A stretch of 26,832 nucleotides of DNA from positions 1 to 26,832 of the IMG/VR virus record IMGVR_UViG_3300037541_000969; one strand, given 5' to 3'. Of the stretch, positions 1,211 to 15,390 are shown piece after piece. The notes beneath the pieces are model-generated. The model saw only the letters and a list, made by a program, of their open reading frames with translations. It searched no databases and was not told the DNA's origin. Numbering within the stretch: position 1 is the stretch's first letter; each line of letters opens with the position of its first letter. This stretch comes from a virus. Taxonomy: Duplodnaviria > Caudoviricetes. The translations under genes and the position numbers were made by a program.

Positions 1211-4200
1211 GGACAGGGAATATTCCCAAGATGAAGTTGACGCTCTAGCAGCCGCCGAGCTGCCGGTGCAGGACGCCCCTATTCCCCCAAACGCCTCTAC
1301 GGCCTCAGCCGCCGCAAGCGGAGCACCTGAACCGACAGGATCTGCCGGGCTGATCACCGGCGAGGGGGCACTTCCTGCCCGCGGACCCGCCATAGGCCCC
1401 GTTGCCCAGCTTGAGGCCCGTGAATACACCACCGAGGAAATCGACCTACTTGAGCGAGCCAACCGACCCAAAGGTTACACTCAAGACGAGGTGGACAAAA
1501 TGGTCATGGAAGCCCTCGAAGATCCAAACTACATCCCGACACGCGACGAGTATTTCGAGCAAAAGGCCACCAAGGAGCGCCTCAAGGCCCAAGGCAAAAT
1601 CCCTGGCAATGGCGAACTCGCAGCCAAGGCCGTCGGCGGGTTGTTCGTCACCGCAGCGGATGTTTTTTACACACTGGCGGTAGACCCAGAGGGAAGCGTG
1701 ACACGCATCCCAGAGACATGGGACCGAATCAAAGCAGACACCCTCAAGGAGCCAAAATCAGAGGCTCTTGCCAAAGCCCCCGCCACACTCCAGACCGGCA
1801 TCGGCCGCGCTGCCTTGAGCGCCATGCAGCTCGGAGGCTGGGCCAAGCAGGCTCTGGAAGGCCAACCTAAATATATCAACGAGGCCACGGGAGAGTTTTT
1901 GTTTGCCGAGGCGCAAAACCCAATGATCCTCGCCGGGTTCCAAGAGCGATATCCAAATCAACCGATCCGCCCAACCAACGAGGAGGATCTGAAGGACTAC
2001 GAATTCAAAAACCATCTTTGGGAAAAAGGCATCGACGCCCAATATCAAGAGCTCGGGCAAAAGACCGCGCCCACCGAGCTACTCACCCGCGTGCTCACCG
2101 GCCGCAACCAGCAAGAGACGCCCATCGAGTCCCAGGCTCAGGTGCTCGAGATCGCCACCGACCCGACCAACATCATCCCTTTCAGCGCCGGTGCAAAACC
2201 CCTCGGCCTCTCCCGAGGCATGAAGATTGTTAGTTCCAAGACCGCCAGCGGCATTGAAAAACTCGCAGGCGGCCTCGTCAAAGGCAACGACGCCCTCGCT
2301 GAACGCTTCGCCAGAGTCGTCACCGAAAAGACCGGCGTCAGCCCGCAAAACATCTCTGCCGCGGCAAACGCCATGACCTTTGGCCGGAATGTCGGCATCG
2401 GCGGCGGTATCGCCATGGGTGCCACAGCCCTCGGAGCCCCGCCAGAAGTCAGCGCCACCATTGCCGGGTTCTACCCCGCCTACAAAGCAGGGCTCGGCGT
2501 GCTCCGCAAGATCGAGACCGGAGCAGGCACCGCTAAAATCATCCTCCGCGAATCCGCCGACGCCACCAATGGCCTGGACCAAGCCGCCCGAGCCGCCGTG
2601 TTGGCCAATCCCGCCGTGCCCTCCATTTTCAAAGAAGTCCTCGAGCGTCCAAGCCAGTTCGTGAGCATCGAGTCCACGCCCGCCCGCCTCGCCGCGAATC
2701 AAGCCCTCTCCCCGCAGATGCGAGCCTTCATGGGCAAGCTCTCGAATCCCGCCATCGTCCAAGCCGTCCGCGGATCCAGCGCCCTCGCTACAGGTGCCGT
2801 GAAAGGTGCCGCAGCCAATGTTCCCTTCGCCCTCCTCGCCGCCAATGCCGGTCAGGATGAAGACGCCGCCGCCATGCTCGCCATGGGCGGCACCTTTGGC
2901 GCCCTCGGTGGGGGCGTGGACCGCTTCACCGGCCTCGCCCAGCGTCGCCAGCAAGCCGCCCTCAGCGATGTGTCCCGCATGCTCGTCGATGTCGAACTCA
3001 ACGGTGGAGATGTCGGAAAAATGATGTCCACGCAGACGCCCGACAACCTCGTCAGGCTCGCCGCCATGCAGGGCACCTTCCGCAACGGTCTCGACTTCGT
3101 TCCCCTTAGCGCCGAGGACTACGACGCCAATGTCGCCGCCCAAGGCGGAGCCGGAACCGCCGGCATGTTTGTGCAGGCCCCACTCGGCGAACGCGCCAAG
3201 GTATTCATCAACCTCGACGCCCGCCGTGGAGGAGTCGAGCCCCACGAATTTGGCCACGCCCTCCTCGCCAGCGGTGCCCTCGACGGCCAGCAGAAATACG
3301 CCGCCCGCGCCTGGGTGGATAAAACCTACGGCCCCGAAGGCGTCCAAGCCCGCGCCACCGAATACGCCAGCAACATCATCCGAGGCAAAAACGCCAGCGC
3401 CTTCCCCGACGGCAACTTCGAGATCAGCCCCGGCACACTCACCGCCGAGATGGAGAACCTCAGTCAAGGCGGACTCGCCCGAGGAGACATGGACGGCCTC
3501 GATTGGGCCCGCGACGAGATTTTCGCCGAGACCTTCGCCAAGGCCAGCAACACCATGGATTTCGCCGCCATCCGCCGAGGAGCCCCCGCCGGCGGCAATA
3601 TGCTCACCTTCGCCGAGAGCGTCCTCGGTGCCCAAGCCCGCGCCCTCAGCGCCAGCGGTGTGCGCATCGACCCCCAGACCGGCCAAGCCCTCGACACCCC
3701 CGGCAGCCTCTTTAAAGAAAACCCCATCCTCGCCACCGACAAGGCCCTCCTCAACCAGCTCGGCACCTACATCAACAACTACCGCCAGTGGGCCAACGAC
3801 CCCACCCACGAAAAGCCCCGCCCAAACCGCATCGCCCCCAGCGGCCGCGCCAGCGACATCGCCAACAATCCCCAGGTCACATTCTACGACCGAGGTGACG
3901 GCGTGCAGGCCACCACCTTCGCCACGCAAGACCCCGCCACCGGCCAAGCCATCCTCCGCGACCAGCGCGACCTCAACCAAGAACACGCCAAGGTCAAAGA
4001 GCAGATCCGAAACATCGTCGGCTCCAAACTCATTCCAGACTCCAACCCCGTCCTCGGCCCCAAGAAGACCGCAGACGGCCGCGTCACCGTGCGAGGCCGA
4101 GTCCTCCCGCCCAGCTTTGATTTCCTCAACGGCTTCATGCCCCACATCCGCGCCTTCGCCCGTCAGTTCGAGGCCCTCGGAGCCGCTGGCGAGAGCATGC

Positions 4201-7103
4201 AGGTCCGCTACCACGCCATCGGCAGCGGAGACACCGGCGCCTTCCGAGTCAACCGCCTCGGCAACCTCGAAGCCATCACCCGCGAAGTCATTCCCTGGGG
4301 ATGGGAACTCACCAAAGCAGGCAACCTCAACGCCACCGTGCTCGACCTCTCGCAATTCCGCAACCGCGCCATGCGAGGCATCGCCGAGCGCAACCCCGCC
4401 CTCGCCCCCTTCGACTACGACATGGGCAAGATCGAAGCCGACCTCAAGACCTACATGGAGAACCACCGGCAGGAACTCCCCGGCAACACCAAGATAGGCG
4501 ACGAGAAGCGAGACGCCATCAACGCAATCCTCGGCATCGCCACCACCAAAAACCGCGAGCGCAACGCCCTCTCCGGCAGCTTCGGCCCCGGCAGCGCCAT
4601 CAAACAATTCCGCCTCGACCGCGTAGACGCCGCCGTAGGCACTGGCCGCACCGGCTTCCACTTCGACTACGACCGCGCCAACCGCAACTTCATGCCCGAC
4701 AAGCCAGCCCCCATGCCGGACTTGTCTCGGGATGTGCCAACGCCTAAAGGTCAGGCGATACCGGATGCTGTTGATATGCCCGTAAAATTAGGCAACCAAA
4801 ATTTTATGCTCCGCCCCGCAGGCATAGTATCGATGCCTGGCCAAGCCTTTCCAGCCTACCACGGCACGCCGCACAAGGTGGACCGCTTCAGCACCGAGAA
4901 GATCGGCACCGGCGAAGGAGCGCAGGCTTATGGCTGGGGGCTTTATTTTGCGGAGAATAAAGGGGTAGCAGAAGACTACCAACGCACGCTCGCAAAGAGA
5001 GCGGGAACGACAGATGCATGGTTTTTACGACCAGTCGATTCAGCTACGGCAAAATACCGTGAGGCAATTAATTATGCCGATGCTGCTCCAATGGCTATCA
5101 GTCAGACAATATCGGCCATGAACGCCACCGAGGCCGACGCGCCTCGCATTGCCAGAGAACTTGCCGCATCTGCACGCAAGCCAGAATACATCAAAGCCTA
5201 CAACGACATTGCCGACATGATTGATTCTGGAGAGGTTGTCGTTTCAATCCCTTCTGGCAACCTCTACACCGTCGATCTTGATGTCAAACTAGAAGACCTG
5301 CTTGACTGGGACAAACCATTCTCCGAGCAGAGTCCGAAGGTGCAGGCGGCGTTGAAAGCGGTGCAATCCGACCACCCGCTTTGGAATGATACCATTTCTG
5401 GGAAAAATGGGAAACCAGTCGGCGGGGCAATATACAAAACACTTACCGCAACTTGGCCAGATGCGGAATTTTCCCGCGATGGAATTGACCCCAAGAAAAA
5501 AGCCTCCGAAGCCCTCCTCGCCGCAGGCATCCCCGGCATCCGCTACCTCGACGGCGGCAGCCGCTCGGTCAATGCTACAGACGACCGGCTTTTAGAACTT
5601 GCCGAGAAAAACAACGGCAACAAGGAAGCCGCCGTCGATGAATTCATGCGAAGTGTCTATGACACTCCCAAGGCCAAGGAAAAAATGCGAAACGACCTTC
5701 TTCGCAATTTTCCAGAGCGCACATACAACTATGTCGCCTTCGACGAAAACCTCATTCGCATCACCGAGGAGAACGGCAACCGCATCCCCGCAGCGGAAGC
5801 TCTCGCCGCGAGAGGCCAAGCCATGCCGGATGCGGTGCATTCTGCGGGATATGCCCTTCCAAAAAAAGTTCCGCAACGAGGCTATTTTTCTATTGGAACA
5901 CTGCCAACAACCGACGGACGCGTGCTGGAGTATCATGTAGACCCAACCACGACAATTCAGCCAAGAGTCGCTGGAATAAACAGCATACGCGGAGAACAAG
6001 TCGCCATGTTAGAGGCCGACAGGCACAATACTCGCGGTGACAACATGGGCGGCCCATTGCATCCTTTTTTAATTAGCAACCAAACCGTCGCTAGATTGCC
6101 TGATGGGCGAGGCTACAAAGCAGTGTGGGCAAATATGAATAGTGCCTTTGTCACACGAGCAAAAAACATCGTTAAAACCACGACTGCAGGCCATGCGCTG
6201 ATTCAGATAATGAAAGAGAATGCACACCGCAGTAATCGCAAGTTCGTAATGGATGTAACTTCAGAAATTGACAAGCGCAGTTCCACTATGTCGAAAGACC
6301 AAGTCGATTTCTTGCATGTAGTGCTGGAACTTGGCGCAATCAATCCTAAAGGCCGAATGAACCAAGCCGCCAGTAAGTTGGAAAGAACAGCCAAGGCGGC
6401 ACTCAATAAGGAAGTGCCAATGCAAGAATTGGCTGACGCGCAAAAAGAATATGATGCGACACTCAATAAGTATCAGCCCATGGTTGAGTTTCTCTCGCGT
6501 TTAAGCCCCTTAAAATCTCACGCAACACGCGGAAGAATGCCTGCGTTTGACAACGAGTTTGCATCTATTCTTTCCAATTACCGAAACCAACCGTGGTTTG
6601 AGTCTATGGCTTCAAAATACCGCAACACAAAATTTGTCGATGAGGCTGCAAGATTTTCGTTCAATCAGCGTGGGGCTGCAATGGATCGCATCACCGGCAT
6701 CCCATTTGCCCCTAATGTAAAGTCTATGCTGAAAAGTTCGATGGACTTTGTAAATGGCCAAAACCTCGATGTTGTCGGAGTGGTGCAATTGTCAAAAGAC
6801 GCAGATGCATTTGCCGTTTACTTTGGGAAAAATTCAAAAGAAGAAGGAAAAATGAGCCCGAATGAAAGATTGCTTCGAAATCAACTTTTGGCCTCTGGTT
6901 CGTTCAAGCCACACCCTTCCTATGATTGGGTCATGCTTGGCCCAGAAAACGCGGACAGCTTTATCCTGGATACACCTGCTGACCCGCTAAAATTGTTTCC
7001 CGATTACGCCAAGAACCACCCAAACAAAAATGTGCGCAAAGGCAGTAAAGAAACAGTTGTCGGGACGATGAAAAAGAGTAAGATTCCTTTAGTTCTCAAA
7101 TGA
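1173..7103 (+). CDS. Large polyvalent virion protein, 1976 aa: zincin metallopeptidase domain, ART-PolyVal-like ADP-ribosyltransferase domain and unknown C-terminal domain
   Basis: HEFGH at 3243-3257 with downstream DEIFAE (3513 on). A/G-rich hydrophobic helices in the N-terminal third. YHGTPH...KIGTGEGAQAYGWGLYFAE...GIPGIRYLDGGSR...NYVAFD (about 4854-5760) matches the ART-like domain of phage polyvalent proteins. Confidence 0.8.
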   Translation: MVNIIPPNSTALEDREYSQDEVDALAAAELPVQDAPIPPNASTASAAASGAPEPTGSAGLITGEGALPARGPAIGPVAQLEAREYTTEEIDLLERANRPKGYTQDEVDKMVMEALEDPNYIPTRDEYFEQKATKERLKAQGKIPGNGELAAKAVGGLFVTAADVFYTLAVDPEGSVTRIPETWDRIKADTLKEPKSEALAKAPATLQTGIGRAALSAMQLGGWAKQALEGQPKYINEATGEFLFAEAQNPMILAGFQERYPNQPIRPTNEEDLKDYEFKNHLWEKGIDAQYQELGQKTAPTELLTRVLTGRNQQETPIESQAQVLEIATDPTNIIPFSAGAKPLGLSRGMKIVSSKTASGIEKLAGGLVKGNDALAERFARVVTEKTGVSPQNISAAANAMTFGRNVGIGGGIAMGATALGAPPEVSATIAGFYPAYKAGLGVLRKIETGAGTAKIILRESADATNGLDQAARAAVLANPAVPSIFKEVLERPSQFVSIESTPARLAANQALSPQMRAFMGKLSNPAIVQAVRGSSALATGAVKGAAANVPFALLAANAGQDEDAAAMLAMGGTFGALGGGVDRFTGLAQRRQQAALSDVSRMLVDVELNGGDVGKMMSTQTPDNLVRLAAMQGTFRNGLDFVPLSAEDYDANVAAQGGAGTAGMFVQAPLGERAKVFINLDARRGGVEPHEFGHALLASGALDGQQKYAARAWVDKTYGPEGVQARATEYASNIIRGKNASAFPDGNFEISPGTLTAEMENLSQGGLARGDMDGLDWARDEIFAETFAKASNTMDFAAIRRGAPAGGNMLTFAESVLGAQARALSASGVRIDPQTGQALDTPGSLFKENPILATDKALLNQLGTYINNYRQWANDPTHEKPRPNRIAPSGRASDIANNPQVTFYDRGDGVQATTFATQDPATGQAILRDQRDLNQEHAKVKEQIRNIVGSKLIPDSNPVLGPKKTADGRVTVRGRVLPPSFDFLNGFMPHIRAFARQFEALGAAGESMQVRYHAIGSGDTGAFRVNRLGNLEAITREVIPWGWELTKAGNLNATVLDLSQFRNRAMRGIAERNPALAPFDYDMGKIEADLKTYMENHRQELPGNTKIGDEKRDAINAILGIATTKNRERNALSGSFGPGSAIKQFRLDRVDAAVGTGRTGFHFDYDRANRNFMPDKPAPMPDLSRDVPTPKGQAIPDAVDMPVKLGNQNFMLRPAGIVSMPGQAFPAYHGTPHKVDRFSTEKIGTGEGAQAYGWGLYFAENKGVAEDYQRTLAKRAGTTDAWFLRPVDSATAKYREAINYADAAPMAISQTISAMNATEADAPRIARELAASARKPEYIKAYNDIADMIDSGEVVVSIPSGNLYTVDLDVKLEDLLDWDKPFSEQSPKVQAALKAVQSDHPLWNDTISGKNGKPVGGAIYKTLTATWPDAEFSRDGIDPKKKASEALLAAGIPGIRYLDGGSRSVNATDDRLLELAEKNNGNKEAAVDEFMRSVYDTPKAKEKMRNDLLRNFPERTYNYVAFDENLIRITEENGNRIPAAEALAARGQAMPDAVHSAGYALPKKVPQRGYFSIGTLPTTDGRVLEYHVDPTTTIQPRVAGINSIRGEQVAMLEADRHNTRGDNMGGPLHPFLISNQTVARLPDGRGYKAVWANMNSAFVTRAKNIVKTTTAGHALIQIMKENAHRSNRKFVMDVTSEIDKRSSTMSKDQVDFLHVVLELGAINPKGRMNQAASKLERTAKAALNKEVPMQELADAQKEYDATLNKYQPMVEFLSRLSPLKSHATRGRMPAFDNEFASILSNYRNQPWFESMASKYRNTKFVDEAARFSFNQRGAAMDRITGIPFAPNVKSMLKSSMDFVNGQNLDVVGVVQLSKDADAFAVYFGKNSKEEGKMSPNERLLRNQLLASGSFKPHPSYDWVMLGPENADSFILDTPADPLKLFPDYAKNHPNKNVRKGSKETVVGTMKKSKIPLVLK

Positions 7104-7333
7104 TGAAGTTCAACCCAAAAGTAGATCATGTGCTAGTGACCGACAACGACGCTGGTCCCGAAGGTTGGGAGCTTGTGCCTGTGCAAGATTTAAATGTTTT
7201 CTACAATCCATCCAAAATGGATGAGGCAGAAATGGCCAACATCATTGAGGACTTTGAGAGTGGCGATGGCAAGCTCATGGATAAAGTAGCTCACTTCGAC
7301 ACCGCTTTAGACCGCGAGTTGGCGGCAATTTAA
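7100..7333 (+). CDS. Small acidic protein, 77 aa; candidate immunity partner of the giant protein's C-terminal domain
   Basis: ATGA overlap with the giant gene's stop, the same lower-GC composition as 5832-7103, and D/E-rich sequence. Confidence 0.6.
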   Translation: MMKFNPKVDHVLVTDNDAGPEGWELVPVQDLNVFYNPSKMDEAEMANIIEDFESGDGKLMDKVAHFDTALDRELAAI

Positions 7334-7378
7334 TCCGCGAAAGTCACACCGCCCACCACTGCTCCGCCTCGCGGCGGG

Positions 7379-8383
7379 TCACAACCCCCAAAACCTCTCC
7401 GCTTCCGCCTGCCGGACTGCACGGGCATAGGTTTTATTGACCATCTGCGGCGACGAGTGCCCGAGGAAAAATGCGGTCTTCCCCGCATCCTGCCACATCG
7501 CCAAGTGCATTGAGGCCGCCGTGTGTCTCAAACAATTTTGCGGCCATTCCTCCCACTTCATTTTCTCTGCCAGCGCCGTCCGCCCGCGCTTGATGAAATC
7601 CTCCTCCAAGCAGTCCCAATCCGCCGGCAGATGCCGCCGCAGGGCAGGCAGAATCGGCACATAGCGCTTCCGAGGCACCGGATCCGTGGACTTGATCTGC
7701 GGCACCAAAATCTCCGCCTCCTCCACATGCTCCGGCTTCGCCCGCCACACCTCGCTCGTCCGCATCCCCCCAAAAACTCCCAGCACCAACCACGCCCGTA
7801 GCCGGTCATTCTGCGCCGTCAAGTCCAGCAGCCGATTCACATTTTTCACCGAGAGCAAATGGTGCTCGGTCGTCCGCGCAGGCACATCAATCTTCAGCAC
7901 CGGATTCCGCTCCGCCAAATCGTAACGCACCGCCCAGTTCCAAACCAGCCGCAAGTAATCGAAGCCCTGCTTCGCCGTCGTTCCGGTCCACTCTGGGCGG
8001 GTAAGGAACCTGTCGATGTGCCCCGGCTTGATGTCGCACAGATCCATCGGCCCATACTCCGCCACAAATTTTCCCCACCACCAAAGCAAAAGCCGCTTGT
8101 GATTTCCCTCCTTTAGCTTCGGCATGCGAACCAGATTAAACTCCCGCCAAACTTGCGCCACGGTCATCCCCGCCGCCTGCTCAAAAGCCTCCGTCCCTCG
8201 GGCCTGTAGCTTCGTCAAAAGAGCATCCCGGTGCAACGACGCCTCCAAGCGAGTCTGAAAAAAAGTCCGTTTCTCAATGCCATTGATTCGTGAAAAAACC
8301 ACATGCTTGGCCTCCCCCCGCACCGTGGCCTCCCGAAGAGTGATCAAGGGCGTGTTGCGTCCTGTTGCGTCCGTTGCGTCCAT
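7379..8383 (-). CDS. int: Tyrosine recombinase (phage integrase), 334 aa
   Basis: Catalytic motifs GMRTSE (R), QIKS (K), NCLRHT (xxxR box), LGHSS (H) and KTYAR (Y). Adjacent to a tRNA-derived att core. Confidence 0.93.
   Translation of the reverse strand: MDATDATGRNTPLITLREATVRGEAKHVVFSRINGIEKRTFFQTRLEASLHRDALLTKLQARGTEAFEQAAGMTVAQVWREFNLVRMPKLKEGNHKRLLLWWWGKFVAEYGPMDLCDIKPGHIDRFLTRPEWTGTTAKQGFDYLRLVWNWAVRYDLAERNPVLKIDVPARTTEHHLLSVKNVNRLLDLTAQNDRLRAWLVLGVFGGMRTSEVWRAKPEHVEEAEILVPQIKSTDPVPRKRYVPILPALRRHLPADWDCLEEDFIKRGRTALAEKMKWEEWPQNCLRHTAASMHLAMWQDAGKTAFFLGHSSPQMVNKTYARAVRQAEAERFWGL
8353..8381. repeat. Three tandem (T)GTTGCGTCC repeats; putative integrase arm-type sites
   Basis: TGTTGCGTCC at 8353-8362 and 8363-8372, GTTGCGTCC at 8373-8381. 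The same motif recurs on the other side of the att core (8571-8589). Confidence 0.7.
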
Positions 8384-8438
8384 TTACCCATTTTCGCCCC
8401 TTTGAACCCATTTGCAACCAGAATCACCCAGAATGAAG

Positions 8439-8481
8439 AAAAGCCCGCCGAACCAGTCTCCATGGGGTTCAGCGGGCTTTT
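8439..8481 (-). terminator. Hairpin downstream of the tRNA fragment; likely terminator for the reconstituted host tRNA (possibly bidirectional)
   Basis: AAAAGCCCGC-CGAACC...GGTTC-AGCGGGCTTTT inverted repeat flanked by A and T runs. Confidence 0.65.
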
Positions 8482-8487
8482 AGAAGG

Positions 8488-8534
8488 GGAGCCGACGACG
8501 AGATTTGAACTCGTGACCTATCGATTACGAATCG
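8488..8534 (-). mobile_element. attP: attP core: 3' half of tRNA-Thr(CGT)
   Basis: The reverse complement reads CGA TTCGTAA TCGAT AGGTC ACGAG TTCAAAT CTCGT CGTCGGC T CC. That gives an anticodon loop with CGT, variable loop, T-arm, 3' acceptor strand and discriminator. No D-arm or 5' acceptor strand is present upstream. Confidence 0.88.
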
Positions 8535-8570
8535 CAGATGGAGGATTGGTTTTCATTGTTTTGCGAGGGC

Positions 8571-8589
8571 GTTGCGCTCATGTTGCGTC
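8571..8589. repeat. Second cluster of putative integrase arm-type sites
   Basis: GTTGCG at 8571-8576 and TGTTGCGTC at 8581-8589 match the 8353-8381 repeat unit. Confidence 0.6.
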
Positions 8590-8595
8590 AAGGGC

Positions 8596-8997
8596 TTAGT
8601 TTTGGCTGAGGGTGGGAAGGGCTTGGCGCATGTAGTGCTGGGCGTGGGGGTGGAGGTAGGCGACTTGCTTGGGCGGGGTGGCGACGGTGTGGAAGTGCTG
8701 CTCTTGCACGGTGCCGTCGAGCCAGCGGGCTCGGAGGATTTGGACATACAGGCCGTTGGCGGGCCAGCTGTCGCGGTAGCAGCGCTTGAGCTCGAGCACG
8801 CAGGGGGTGACGCCGACGACATCGCCGTTGAGATCGATCATGGCGCCGCTGGGGGCGCTGTGGATGGTGACGGTGCGGTCAGTAAATTTGGCTTCCCACT
8901 CGCGTTTGCTGGCTTCGGGGTCGATGGTGCTTTTGGGACCGGCGCAGGCAGTGAGGAACAGGGCCGCGAGGGCGATGAGGAGGAGTGATGTTTTCAT
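8596..8997 (-). CDS. Lipoprotein with PEGA-like domain, 133 aa
   Basis: Signal peptide MKTSLLLIALAALFLTA-C with a lipobox. VTIHSAPSGAMIDLNGDVVGVTP is a PEGA-type motif. Confidence 0.75.
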   Translation of the reverse strand: MKTSLLLIALAALFLTACAGPKSTIDPEASKREWEAKFTDRTVTIHSAPSGAMIDLNGDVVGVTPCVLELKRCYRDSWPANGLYVQILRARWLDGTVQEQHFHTVATPPKQVAYLHPHAQHYMRQALPTLSQN

Positions 8998-9272
8998 TTT
9001 TGGGGTGTCTGAAATTTTTTGAGCTCTGCTTGGCTGGCTTGAAATTCATGGACTCGGTAGGCGCGGCCGGGGGCGATTTTTTCAAAAGCGGATTTGATAT
9101 TTTCGGCTTCGACTTGGTTGTCCATAAAACCAAAAACCAAGATGACATTGTGCCATTCGTTCATGGCCGGGCTGTATTGTTGGACAATGCTGACTTCTTT
9201 TTTTTCGACGGGATAAAACAAATACACAAGCAGGACGATGCCTGCGGCGATCCAAAGAAAATCATTTTTCAT
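8994..9272 (-). CDS. Small membrane-anchored protein, 92 aa
   Basis: ATG at 9272 (MKNDFLWIAAGIVLLVYLF...) gives an N-terminal TM helix. Its stop overlaps the lipoprotein start by 4 nt. Confidence 0.65.
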   Translation of the reverse strand: MKNDFLWIAAGIVLLVYLFYPVEKKEVSIVQQYSPAMNEWHNVILVFGFMDNQVEAENIKSAFEKIAPGRAYRVHEFQASQAELKKFQTPQK

Positions 9273-9282
9273 AGCGGGGTGG

Positions 9283-9627
9283 TCAGGTCGTGGATTTGCG
9301 CCGTCCACCCTTCTGGTAGCGTGCGGTCTTGGGAGTTGAGGATCCACCACCGGAGGTCTCGGTAGAGGGACGGATCAATTTGCCCTGGGGCGTGGCGTTT
9401 CCCGGCTCGTTCATCATCCAGTGGGGGCTGTCGGGCATGGCTTGGCCGTGCATGGGGGGTGCGGCGCGGCGGGCGCGGTATTCGCGGATGGCTTCTTGAA
9501 CGATGCGGCTGGCGCTCCAGTTTTCACCGAGCGTTTGGGTGCGTGATTGGGCTTCTTTTTTTAGCCATTCGGAGACTTCGGGCGGCAGCGAAACGCTGAC
9601 TTTTTCGAAGTTTGGTTTTTTCTTCAT
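9283..9627 (-). CDS. Ribbon-helix-helix regulator with a long disordered C-terminal tail; putative immunity repressor, 114 aa
   Basis: FEKVSVSLPPEVSEWLKKEA...SASRIVQEAIREY is an RHH (Arc/CopG-like) pattern. It occupies the CI position, heading the leftward lysogeny operon. Confidence 0.72.
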   Translation of the reverse strand: MKKKPNFEKVSVSLPPEVSEWLKKEAQSRTQTLGENWSASRIVQEAIREYRARRAAPPMHGQAMPDSPHWMMNEPGNATPQGKLIRPSTETSGGGSSTPKTARYQKGGRRKSTT

Positions 9628-9795
9628 GCCTCCTTGGTAGCACTTCTTGCTACCGAGTGCAAAAAATATTTTGGCCCGCAGATCCTTTGTTTATGCGGGA
9701 GTCAAGTGTTTTTTTTGTATGGAGTGATCACCCCATTTATTTTTTCTCACATTTTTTGTTGCTACTTTTTGCCACTCGGTAGTAACAACTGCGCC
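9628..9795. promoter_or_regulatory. AT-rich divergent control region with TGCTAC(C)-type operator half-sites
   Basis: Inverted repeat GGTAGCA-N5-TGCTACC (9636-9654). TGTTGCTAC (9757-9765) pairs with GTAGTAACA (9779-9787). CTACCGAGTG (9650-9659) is the reverse complement of CACTCGGTAG (9773-9782). Confidence 0.7.
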
Positions 9796-9972
9796 ATGCA
9801 AATCGCATATGTAAAAACAAGCATCTCGATGCCGGCGGAGATGCTGGCTTGGGCGAAGGCCGAGTCGGTTGAGCAGGGCCACTTACCTCTGTCCCGCATT
9901 ATCGCCCAAGCGGTGAGGGAGAAGATGGAGAGGGCGGCCAAAGCCAAAACCAAAGGGGGGGCGAGGAAATGA
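9796..9972 (+). CDS. Ribbon-helix-helix protein in the Cro position, 58 aa
   Basis: ATG 9796; YVKTSISMPAEMLAWAKAES...LSRIIAQAVREKM is an RHH pattern similar to the divergent gene. First gene of the rightward early operon. Confidence 0.72.
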   Translation: MQIAYVKTSISMPAEMLAWAKAESVEQGHLPLSRIIAQAVREKMERAAKAKTKGGARK

Positions 9973-13779: not shown

Positions 13780-14216
13780 CCATCCTTGCCCTCGACCCCG
13801 GCACTACCGAGACGGCGTTTGTCCTTTGGGACGGGCGCCGGATCCTTGAGGCCGACCACCTGCCGAATGCGGAGATCCGCCAAATCCTCATCGGCCGCGA
13901 ATATGACAAGTGCGCCTGTGAGATGATCGCCTCCTACGGCATGGCGGTGGGAAAGGAGGTCTTCGAGACCTGTGTGTGGATTGGGCGGTTCGTGGAAGTG
14001 GCTCGGGTGGAGCCGCGCTTGGTCTACCGGCGCGATGCGAAACTCCACCTCTGCCACTCCCCCAGGGCGAAGGATGCCAATGTGCGGCAGGCGCTGATCG
14101 ACCGCCTTGGGCCGCAGGGCACGAAGAAACAACCCGGCCCGACCTACGGCATGCGCTCCCACCTGTGGGCGGCGCTGGCTGTGGCGGTGTATGCGGGGGA
14201 TGTGAAGGAAAACTAA
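13776..14216 (+). CDS. RuvC-like Holliday junction resolvase, 146 aa
   Basis: ATG 13776; ILALDPG, CACE, and a C-terminal HLWAALAVAV helix (the usual final Asp residues are not conserved). Confidence 0.75.
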   Translation: MTILALDPGTTETAFVLWDGRRILEADHLPNAEIRQILIGREYDKCACEMIASYGMAVGKEVFETCVWIGRFVEVARVEPRLVYRRDAKLHLCHSPRAKDANVRQALIDRLGPQGTKKQPGPTYGMRSHLWAALAVAVYAGDVKEN

Positions 14217-15373
14217 TGTGGATACTACCAAAGAATTTACAGCTATCGAGTGGTGCGCCGGATACGGCGGGATTCATCTCGGACTTAAACGAGCAATCCC
14301 AAATCTGCGCGTCATCGCTTATGGCGAGATCGAAGGCTTCGCCTGCGCGAACTTGGTTGCAAAAATGGAAGCGGGACTCTTGGACCCAGCACCTCTCTGG
14401 ACGGATATTAAGACCTTCCCATGCGAGGACTTTCGTGACCGAGTGGACCTCCTTGTGGCCGGTTACCCCTGCCAGCCATTTTCCGCAGCCGGAAAGCGCC
14501 TCGGCACAGACGACCCTCGCCACCTCTGGCCACACATCGCCAGATCAATACGAGTTATTCGACCTCGACTATGCTTCTTTGAGAATGTCGAAGGACACAT
14601 CAGCCTCGGACTCCGAGAAGTCATTGGAGAGCTGGAATCAATCGGTTACAAAGCGGCGTGGGGAATATTCAGCGCGGCTGAAGTCGGCGCACCGCACCAG
14701 AGGAAGCGGGTCTTCATCTTGGCCTACGACCAACGCACGAGATTGGAAGGATTCTGTCAATTCAGTTCCGCCATCAGTAGGTCAGACTCGAGGTCACAGC
14801 CTTGGAATGGCTGTAGCGGAGAAGAATTGGCCTACGACAGCAGCGCGGGATTACAAAGGAACATCTCCCAATTACTTAATGCGCAAGGATGGGAAGAGTC
14901 GAGCGGATCAGTTAGCTGTTGCGGTGGATTTGGAAGAACAGGTGAATTGGCCCACCCCAACGGTGCAGGAAGCGGGCAAGATTGGCAATCAAGCCAATCA
15001 TGGCCAATTAGCTTTAAGCAATCACCCCGCGATTCGCGGAGAAGTGAATCGGGACAAATACGACAAGGGCAAGCATGGCCTTCCCGCCCCGGCCAACCCC
15101 AGCACGGATGGGAGCCGCCAAGAGTCGTGGGCAACGCCAGAGTGCAAGAACCATGTAGGCTATCAAGTGGATCGGACAGGAGCGATGTGGCCACGGCTTG
15201 GGAGTCAAGTGGCAGGCAAGCTCAACCCCAGATGGGTCGAGACGCTGATGGGCCTTCCGGTGGGCTGGGTTATGCCGAGCTGCAAGTCTCCTGTGACAAT
15301 CGCACTGACGAGCTGCGACTCCTCGGAAACGGAGTCGTCCCTGCAACAGCCGAAAGAGCTTTTCGCGTTTTAA
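14216..15373 (+). CDS. Overlapping-frame methyltransferase partner polypeptide carrying motif IX and repeated WPT modules, 385 aa
   Basis: ATG 14216 is TAATG-coupled to the resolvase stop and the frame stays open for 1158 nt inside the MTase gene. LNPRWVETLMGLPVGW (15221 on) is a C5-MTase motif IX-like sequence absent from the other frame. Confidence 0.72.
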   Translation: MWILPKNLQLSSGAPDTAGFISDLNEQSQICASSLMARSKASPARTWLQKWKRDSWTQHLSGRILRPSHARTFVTEWTSLWPVTPASHFPQPESASAQTTLATSGHTSPDQYELFDLDYASLRMSKDTSASDSEKSLESWNQSVTKRRGEYSARLKSAHRTRGSGSSSWPTTNARDWKDSVNSVPPSVGQTRGHSLGMAVAEKNWPTTAARDYKGTSPNYLMRKDGKSRADQLAVAVDLEEQVNWPTPTVQEAGKIGNQANHGQLALSNHPAIRGEVNRDKYDKGKHGLPAPANPSTDGSRQESWATPECKNHVGYQVDRTGAMWPRLGSQVAGKLNPRWVETLMGLPVGWVMPSCKSPVTIALTSCDSSETESSLQQPKELFAF

Positions 15374-15390
15374 TAGAAGAACTTATTTAA
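14218..15390 (+). CDS. DNA (cytosine-5) methyltransferase, catalytic polypeptide, 390 aa
   Basis: Motif I EWCAGYGG, IV AGYPCQPFS, VI FFENVEG, VIII PHQRKRVF, X LRLLGNGVVP. GTG start; the stop is TAATG-coupled to the helicase. Confidence 0.9.
   Translation: MDTTKEFTAIEWCAGYGGIHLGLKRAIPNLRVIAYGEIEGFACANLVAKMEAGLLDPAPLWTDIKTFPCEDFRDRVDLLVAGYPCQPFSAAGKRLGTDDPRHLWPHIARSIRVIRPRLCFFENVEGHISLGLREVIGELESIGYKAAWGIFSAAEVGAPHQRKRVFILAYDQRTRLEGFCQFSSAISRSDSRSQPWNGCSGEELAYDSSAGLQRNISQLLNAQGWEESSGSVSCCGGFGRTGELAHPNGAGSGQDWQSSQSWPISFKQSPRDSRRSESGQIRQGQAWPSRPGQPQHGWEPPRVVGNARVQEPCRLSSGSDRSDVATAWESSGRQAQPQMGRDADGPSGGLGYAELQVSCDNRTDELRLLGNGVVPATAERAFRVLIEELI

Follow-up and report, generated by a model that had tools for sequence, protein, structure and literature searches.

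The window analyzed here is the whole 26,832-nucleotide (nt) stretch of IMG/VR virus record IMGVR_UViG_3300037541_000969, a linear tailed-phage (Caudoviricetes) record of 26.8 kb that is ~66% complete and encodes an SU10-type capsid, terminase, replication genes, and an integrase. Two of its proteins, encoded on opposite strands, carry the same hexapeptide, GQAMPD. The first is a giant polyvalent protein in which a conserved chassis is followed by swappable cargo modules, with motifs of the GQAxP type at the junctions. The second is a small ribbon-helix-helix (RHH) regulator, a putative repressor, in which the hexapeptide follows the DNA-binding domain. An earlier note on this DNA had proposed that a zinc protease within the giant protein is ejected, cuts its own polyprotein at GQAxP, and also clips the repressor. 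All of the motif positions on which that proposal was built were reproduced, including HEFGH in the giant protein and GQAMPD at residues 61 to 66 of a 114-amino-acid (aa) minus-strand open reading frame (ORF); they are collected in Table 1.

The giant protein shows the hallmarks of the polyvalent class, namely, large size, variable and swappable effector domains, and a polyvalent-type domain (ART-PolyVal). The latter scored 35.9 bits against a Pfam cut-off of 31.2 and lies directly after GQAFP, where an ART-like domain had been predicted. When the protein was compared with its homologues, similarity was found to stop at residues 1198 to 1207 and to resume near residue 1546. The motif GQAxP[DE] was present in 73 of the 79 giant homologues, and 113 of 155 module starts lay no more than 15 residues from a copy, against a random expectation of 14%. 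Since the same ART module is preceded by NYSIG, RFQP, or other tags in other chassis families, the tag was deduced to belong to the chassis and not to the cargo. In a set of 146 distant chassis, MPD gradually gives way to [FY]SP[ED], FRPE, or FSAPR as the tag, with HExxH and the downstream glutamate kept in most of them, and at the chassis-terminal site N and P are invariant in the distant FSPE lineage. The fourth position of the motif in giant copies is M, I, L, F, V, or T, and synonymous variation is found too. From these sequence comparisons it was concluded that GQAxP[DE] is a real junction tag that follows the lineage of the HExxH-bearing chassis. The occurrence of I, F, L, V, and T at the motif methionine rules out internal translation initiation there, for the giant protein only. 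No support was obtained for a membrane-channel role of the chassis N terminus (one window, hydropathy 1.38).

Two further groups of giants were recorded. Module-less giants occur at L208 (8018-11881), L202 (7880-11881), L229, L210, L206, and L207, and the regulator on the L208 contig retains GQAMPD. A second chassis family (L026-L032 and L249-L265) has NYSI[GA] junctions and the active-site variants EEIHH and EEINH; its cargo modules, its integrase type, and sometimes its regulator family are held in common with the chassis family of the window.

The chassis contains a predicted zincin-like metallopeptidase region in which H, E, H, and a downstream E were invariant in 12 chassis. Variants among the chassis were HExxE, EExxH, and HExxxH, together with one degenerate lineage. 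The predicted model of the region (predicted local distance difference test, 68) places three strands ahead of the HExxH helix. A search of solved structures with this region gave no match, and its Atlas matches fell in unnamed clusters, with LPD23 on 18% of one cluster. The suggestion that chassis without HExxH had lost both motifs and cargo proved wrong, as most of these are HExxxH or HExxE variants that end at the motif. Only P0128 and P0129 are clearly degenerate; they lack HExxH and also the chassis-terminal site, and they still carry cargo. When the protease region was modeled in complex with zinc and the linker of the regulator, the result (score, 0.18; mark, 0.32) was counted neither for nor against any interpretation.

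For the regulator, the match to PF07878 (RHH_5) was below the cut-off (E, 0.003 to 0.02), and the source annotations are of the Arc/MetJ type; no helix-turn-helix family (XRE) was matched. Its model has helices at residues 16 to 33 and 39 to 55, with GQAMPD in a low-confidence (flexible) linker. In line with the earlier note, no S24 autocleavage domain was found, in frame 0 or in the -1 frame. The gene faces a second small RHH gene, and the gap between the two holds paired inverted repeats whose sequence, judged by eye, differs by RHH type. The regulator is inferred to repress the lytic promoter because it is arranged divergently, shares its strand with the integrase, and lies beside the paired repeats. 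At L200 (16332-16698), L026, and L252, the divergent pair is replaced by two RHH-like ORFs that overlap on one strand; these phages include GQA- as well as NYSI-chassis types.

The C-terminal part of the regulator was found to be conserved in a different frame from the annotated one. A W-rich domain in the -1 frame is conserved in 45 of 47 regulator homologues, and across 17 diverse rows its R, R, N, S, P, and W residues never change. Both identity and synonymous share were highest in the -1 frame (60%, 2336:1973), compared with 51% and 1814:2545 in frame 0, and frame 0 stayed open through the block in 14 of 33 cases versus 16.2 expected by chance. The -1 frame is start-less, 31 of 44 loci having no ATG, GTG, or TTG over a distance of 150 nt, and in the window its stop overlaps the ATG of the next gene. 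An in-phase heptamer (G GGA AAN or [CG] GAA AAG) was located no more than 60 nt upstream in 36 of 45 homologues; control windows gave none, and slippery heptamers occurred once per 4,409 codons in other genes. The same layout of heptamer and -1 domain was seen in three very distant regulators. Hairpins of -11 to -24 kcal/mol were predicted at seven loci, without a shuffle control and with no structure in common. The W-rich domain gave no convincing family match, was detected in 2 of 401 host-phylum genomes (one being a weak match with a stop), and is kept by motif-bearing and motif-less regulators alike. Judged by codon conservation, the annotated regulator tail is a shadow frame and the conserved C-terminal part is read in the -1 frame. 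The W-rich domain is likely added by -1 ribosomal frameshifting, which would give short and long forms of the regulator, the long (transframe) product being 119 aa. Programmed -1 frameshifts with an in-phase G GGA AAN heptamer and a conserved, start-less -1 frame are known from phage tail chaperones and dnaX; unlike in those cases, the candidate frameshift here extends a lysogeny regulator. The regulators at L014, L005, L047, L048, L050, L011, L017, L019, and L053 have the -1 domain and no clear G GGA AAN site, most of them showing only a C run.

Because the conserved domain lies in the -1 frame, GQAMPD has the DNA-binding domain on one side and a C-terminal domain that is likely frameshift-encoded on the other, and the linker between these two domains is where a repressor cut site would be. 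The placement of the motif at domain boundaries in both proteins, which had made the match stand out, holds for the giant junctions and for the regulator linker; the 114-aa ORF does not cover the whole gene, the conserved C-terminal part being in the other frame.

Whether the shared hexapeptide reflects chance, DNA, or peptide was considered separately. The 24 other window genes encode 5,926 residues, among which 1.6e-4 exact copies of GQAMPD would be expected by chance; it is the sole 6-mer common to the giant and the other window proteins. As the motif is also conserved in homologues, chance is no longer an explanation, which removes the main caveat of the earlier note. An origin in DNA would make the 14-nt core a recombination point at which modules and RHH domains are swapped, the peptide being a by-product or hitch-hiker. 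Such a crossover tag would account for the identity of all 14 nt between 5814 and 9447 and for the swapping of RHH types just upstream of the motif, and the less common CCG (56/59) and GAT (54/59) codons of the giant copies are a sign of DNA homogenization. The CAA and GCC codons of the regulator, invariant in 28 of 28, might be taken in the same way, but the regulator uses the ordinary, preferred codons in the motif, and invariance is just as strong elsewhere in its tail. Moreover, two or more synonymous spellings exist among giant copies, neither RHH-cargo nor giant-tail fusions were found, and the drift seen across the 146 chassis is that of a peptide pattern. The synonymous variants, the hydrophobic changes at position 4, the ordinary regulator codons, and the absent fusions point to selection on the peptide, while the giant junctions do show DNA homogenization, as expected where modules recombine. 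A crossover tag was deemed an unlikely explanation of the shared motif.

Among near regulator homologues, xQAMPD is kept in 34 of 45, across three RHH types, and 10 of the 11 motif-less ones look like clean deletions. In the alignment, the motif is an insert of about 12 to 17 residues after the RHH domain in one branch of the family, and its flanks share a mean identity of 15% among 21 clusters, one of which is a chance non-regulator row. By contig, the regulator motif was found in 17 of 24 GQA-chassis phages versus 0 of 4 NYSI-chassis phages (Fisher P of 0.016, the contigs being kin and not independent); in a separate locus set, the counts were 18 of 24 and 0 of 2. The DNA-pattern search gave 122 matches, a minority of which were inspected singly. 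The regulator trees omit 17 rows and use the frame-0 (shadow) tail, and no firm order of gain and loss was drawn from them. When the junction and linker motifs were compared for co-variation, which had been suggested as a check, the regulator copy turned up only beside a chassis using the same tag; no case of co-variation in the strict sense, in which both proteins would carry a different motif, was seen, few loci of other lineages allowing the test. As far as these alignments go, the regulator motif is conserved but optional.

Table 1. Positions of the features discussed (strand as in the record; a point marks features without strand)
Feature	Position	Strand	Remarks
Polyvalent giant protein, 1976 aa	1173..7103	+	Conserved chassis of ~1170 aa plus swappable cargo modules
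Predicted zincin-like metallopeptidase region	2943..3602	+	HEFGH, 3243-3257; downstream glutamates, 3516-3530
Chassis-terminal site NFMPD and next PMPD	4686..4721	+	NFMPD, 4686-4700; PMPD, 4710-4721
Junction motif GQAIPD	4749..4766	+	
Junction motif GQAFPA before ART module	4839..4856	+	GQAFP, 4839-4853
Cargo module 1, ART-PolyVal-like	4854..5813	+	PF18760, E of 1.5e-8; present in NYSI-type chassis too
Junction motif GQAMPD	5814..5831	+	Homology of last module starts at residues 1536-1547
Cargo module 2, no family match	5832..7103	+	77-99% shared with otherwise distant chassis
Tyrosine integrase	7379..8383	-	
Candidate attP, like a tRNA 3' half	8486..8540	-	Read by eye; CGT anticodon
RHH regulator (putative repressor)	9283..9627	-	Frame-0 product, 114 aa; RHH at ~residues 6-55
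-1 frame extension, 42 codons	9269..9396	-	Conserved W-rich core, 9278-9382
In-phase slippery heptamer G GGA AAC	9397..9403	-	Candidate -1 frameshift site
GQAMPD in regulator linker	9430..9447	-	Residues 61-66
Candidate operator at regulator start	9640..9666	.	One arm of inverted pair
Candidate operator at start of divergent gene	9766..9792	.	Other arm of inverted pair
Divergent 57-aa RHH-like protein	9799..9972	+	Cro/Arc-like position; without motif

Among 50,697 phage records, no cultured relative was found. Two relatives sit in assemblies titled Terrimicrobiaceae, which we take to belong to the Verrucomicrobia, and the host is likely verrucomicrobial. In one relative (L246), host-like genes come after the giant gene, and its sequence ceases to match L202, the free-phage copy, at a tRNA-like 3' end, where the relative is integrated. 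Because L246 joins host-like genes and parts from L202 at this point, the phage family was deduced to be temperate. No Rfam or tRNA gene match was obtained near the switch. Downstream of the regulator, on the same strand, lie two small genes (8596-8997 and 8994-9272, both minus), one of them PEGA-like with a lipoprotein-type start; both are candidates for superinfection exclusion. Elsewhere (13976-15390), long ORFs overlap in two plus-strand frames, each matching DNA methyltransferase families.

We tentatively favor, as possible, an accessory protease input to the lysogeny switch, delivered by the virion and acting through a GQAxP[DE] cut in both the giant protein and the repressor. GQAxP[DE] would be the recognition and cut site of the giant's own predicted zinc peptidase, the HExxH domain of which would be active. 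The giant protein is likely packaged and injected, as judged from its protein class and from its gene coming last in the virion gene block, and cutting would free its cargo modules once it has entered the cell. The same peptidase would cut the putative repressor between the DNA-binding and the W-rich C-terminal domains. Zincins prefer a hydrophobic residue after the cut, and the bond cut may therefore be A-M. Loss of the W-rich domain would weaken repression. A lysogen should not express the late gene, so a protease meeting the resident repressor would come from an incoming virion, and any relative with a GQAxP chassis could then induce a prophage, or overcome its immunity, regardless of RHH type. 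Regulators without the motif would represent variants that escape the cut. As many regulators lack the tag, the protease input would be accessory and not a general inducer, which rules it out as the general replacement for RecA-dependent induction; at most, it would be an added input. The earlier proposal is partly supported. The universal input probably acts through the W-rich domain, which is kept with or without the motif.

A number of results weigh against this interpretation. For the peptidase, Foldseek returned nothing at E of ≤0.001, Pfam gave no match in the region, M78/COG2856 was unmatched in 12 of 12 protease regions, and a structural match to YbeY was weak and stood amid unrelated rows (Z, 5.0 to 6.0; root-mean-square deviation, 3.2 to 4.2; 107 to 115 residues aligned). 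P0129 keeps one SQAMPD before its module though it is without HExxH, and module-less chassis terminate a few residues past the junction site. In the regulators, 9 of 45 keep the -1 domain without a clear slippery heptamer. The wider profile added 67 distant regulator homologues, 11 with and 56 without the motif, none of which carried a different cognate motif, and 7 of the 24 GQA-chassis phages have a motif-less regulator. The earlier note had held that regulator homologues lacking their cognate motif would speak against the idea, and half of this was seen, as these 7 contigs and 56 homologues are motif-less although HExxH and GQAxP junctions are kept in their phages. At no fewer than 11 temperate group-D loci and at L200, giants use GQAMPD and the regulators are unrelated and without the motif. 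No regulator with the cognate motif of another lineage was found in 38 loci of other polyvalent families (about one-third with an integrase) or in 7 loci of the FSPE lineage (mostly lytic-like or truncated). From known systems, the available text of PMC5512222 describes N4 vRNAP as packaged uncut despite an HExxH domain, and that of PMC12828697 describes phage Rir as having the motif with no activity detected.

Three explanations that accept the peptide were also weighed. In the first, GQAMPD is bound and no switch is thrown: the regulator copy would bind to the chassis, either acting as a decoy to delay the release of cargo when relatives superinfect or serving as a virion-loading tag. Chassis without modules keep the site as their last element, as would suit a docking or auto-inhibitory peptide, and Rir is described in the accessible part of PMC12828697 as binding its repressor without cutting. 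A tag would be unnecessary, however, between modules already fused in one chain, and the position between two regulator domains fits a cut better; binding was considered improbable. In the second, the regulator is cut by the chassis protease only once this has been newly made during late lytic growth, so that lysis becomes irreversible and injection is not needed. This late lock-in draws on the same sequence evidence as virion delivery, and virion location is deduced only from gene position and class, yet its benefit looks small when the switch has already flipped by the time of late expression, and 7 of 24 phages do without the regulator motif; we regard it as more improbable. The least probable explanation, that a host protease or another phage protein recognizes GQAxP in both proteins while the HExxH domain does something else, would suit a predicted HExxH activity with weak fold similarity, but chassis lineages with the same cargo and regulator family differ in motif, which a shared host enzyme does not predict, and the CAA spelling matched no host gene in two host assemblies, the single match lying, by coordinates, on a phage-gene contig.

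The preferred interpretation, a virion-delivered protease that cuts giant protein and repressor, has partial parallels. In the P22 Arc/Mnt/Ant system, which has RHH repressors, and with SaPI Stl, an incoming phage protein derepresses the resident element by binding and new expression is needed; here, derepression would instead be by proteolysis and by a packaged protein. As polyvalent proteins are described in the available text of PMC5512222 (Iyer et al. 2017), the giant protein matches them in its large mosaic architecture, its ART-PolyVal module, and its HExxH with downstream glutamate, and autoproteolysis before or after injection was proposed there. The main text of PMC5512222 has no match to "linker" or "repressor" and gives no junction motif or regulator substrate; its supplements could show linker motifs. 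A precedent for zincins cutting repressors appears in the accessible part of PMC12828697, where a zinc peptidase inactivates the repressor in trans and bypasses RecA autocleavage (ImmA/ImmR, IrrE/DdrO, and Rir/Crh). Those pairs consist of small M78 proteases and XRE helix-turn-helix repressors (PMC12828697, same part). Unlike in ImmA-type pairs, the predicted protease here forms part of a late giant protein, it would act on an RHH protein, and its site is also that of its own polyprotein junctions. Neither the ImmA/IrrE-XRE class (M78 match and XRE domain both absent) nor the CI/LexA class (S24 peptidase domain not found) describes this switch. An HExxH or metallopeptidase domain in a giant virion protein that is ejected, or proposed to be, is also found in the C1 domain of N4 vRNAP (PMC13434306) and in phi24B gp47 (bioRxiv 10.64898/2026.04.10.717836). 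For neither is a substrate shown in the text available, and the authors of the latter propose peptidoglycan degradation. In the literature searched, which was mostly non-subscription, no report was found of a virion protease and a repressor that have a site in common, of superinfection-triggered induction by a packaged protease, of a frameshifted phage RHH repressor, or of a named substrate for polyvalent-protein peptidases. What is new here is the motif copy in the linker of the putative repressor together with the unannotated domain that is likely added by frameshifting, and the link between the two proteins is real, conserved, and lineage-limited.

For this repressor family, the immediate meaning is that gene calls miss the real C-terminal domain. 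Being small and soluble and bearing the same six residues, the regulator offers an easy substrate in trans, which makes the proposal of self-processing directly testable. If the proposed cleavage is true, a packaged structural protein would signal to the lysogeny switch without new gene expression, and superinfection would trigger induction. It is a wider and more doubtful proposition that temperate phages of this kind sense their relatives in this way, an injected chassis freeing its cargo and severing the resident frameshift-built repressor across immunity groups, with motif-less repressors as escape variants of an arms race.

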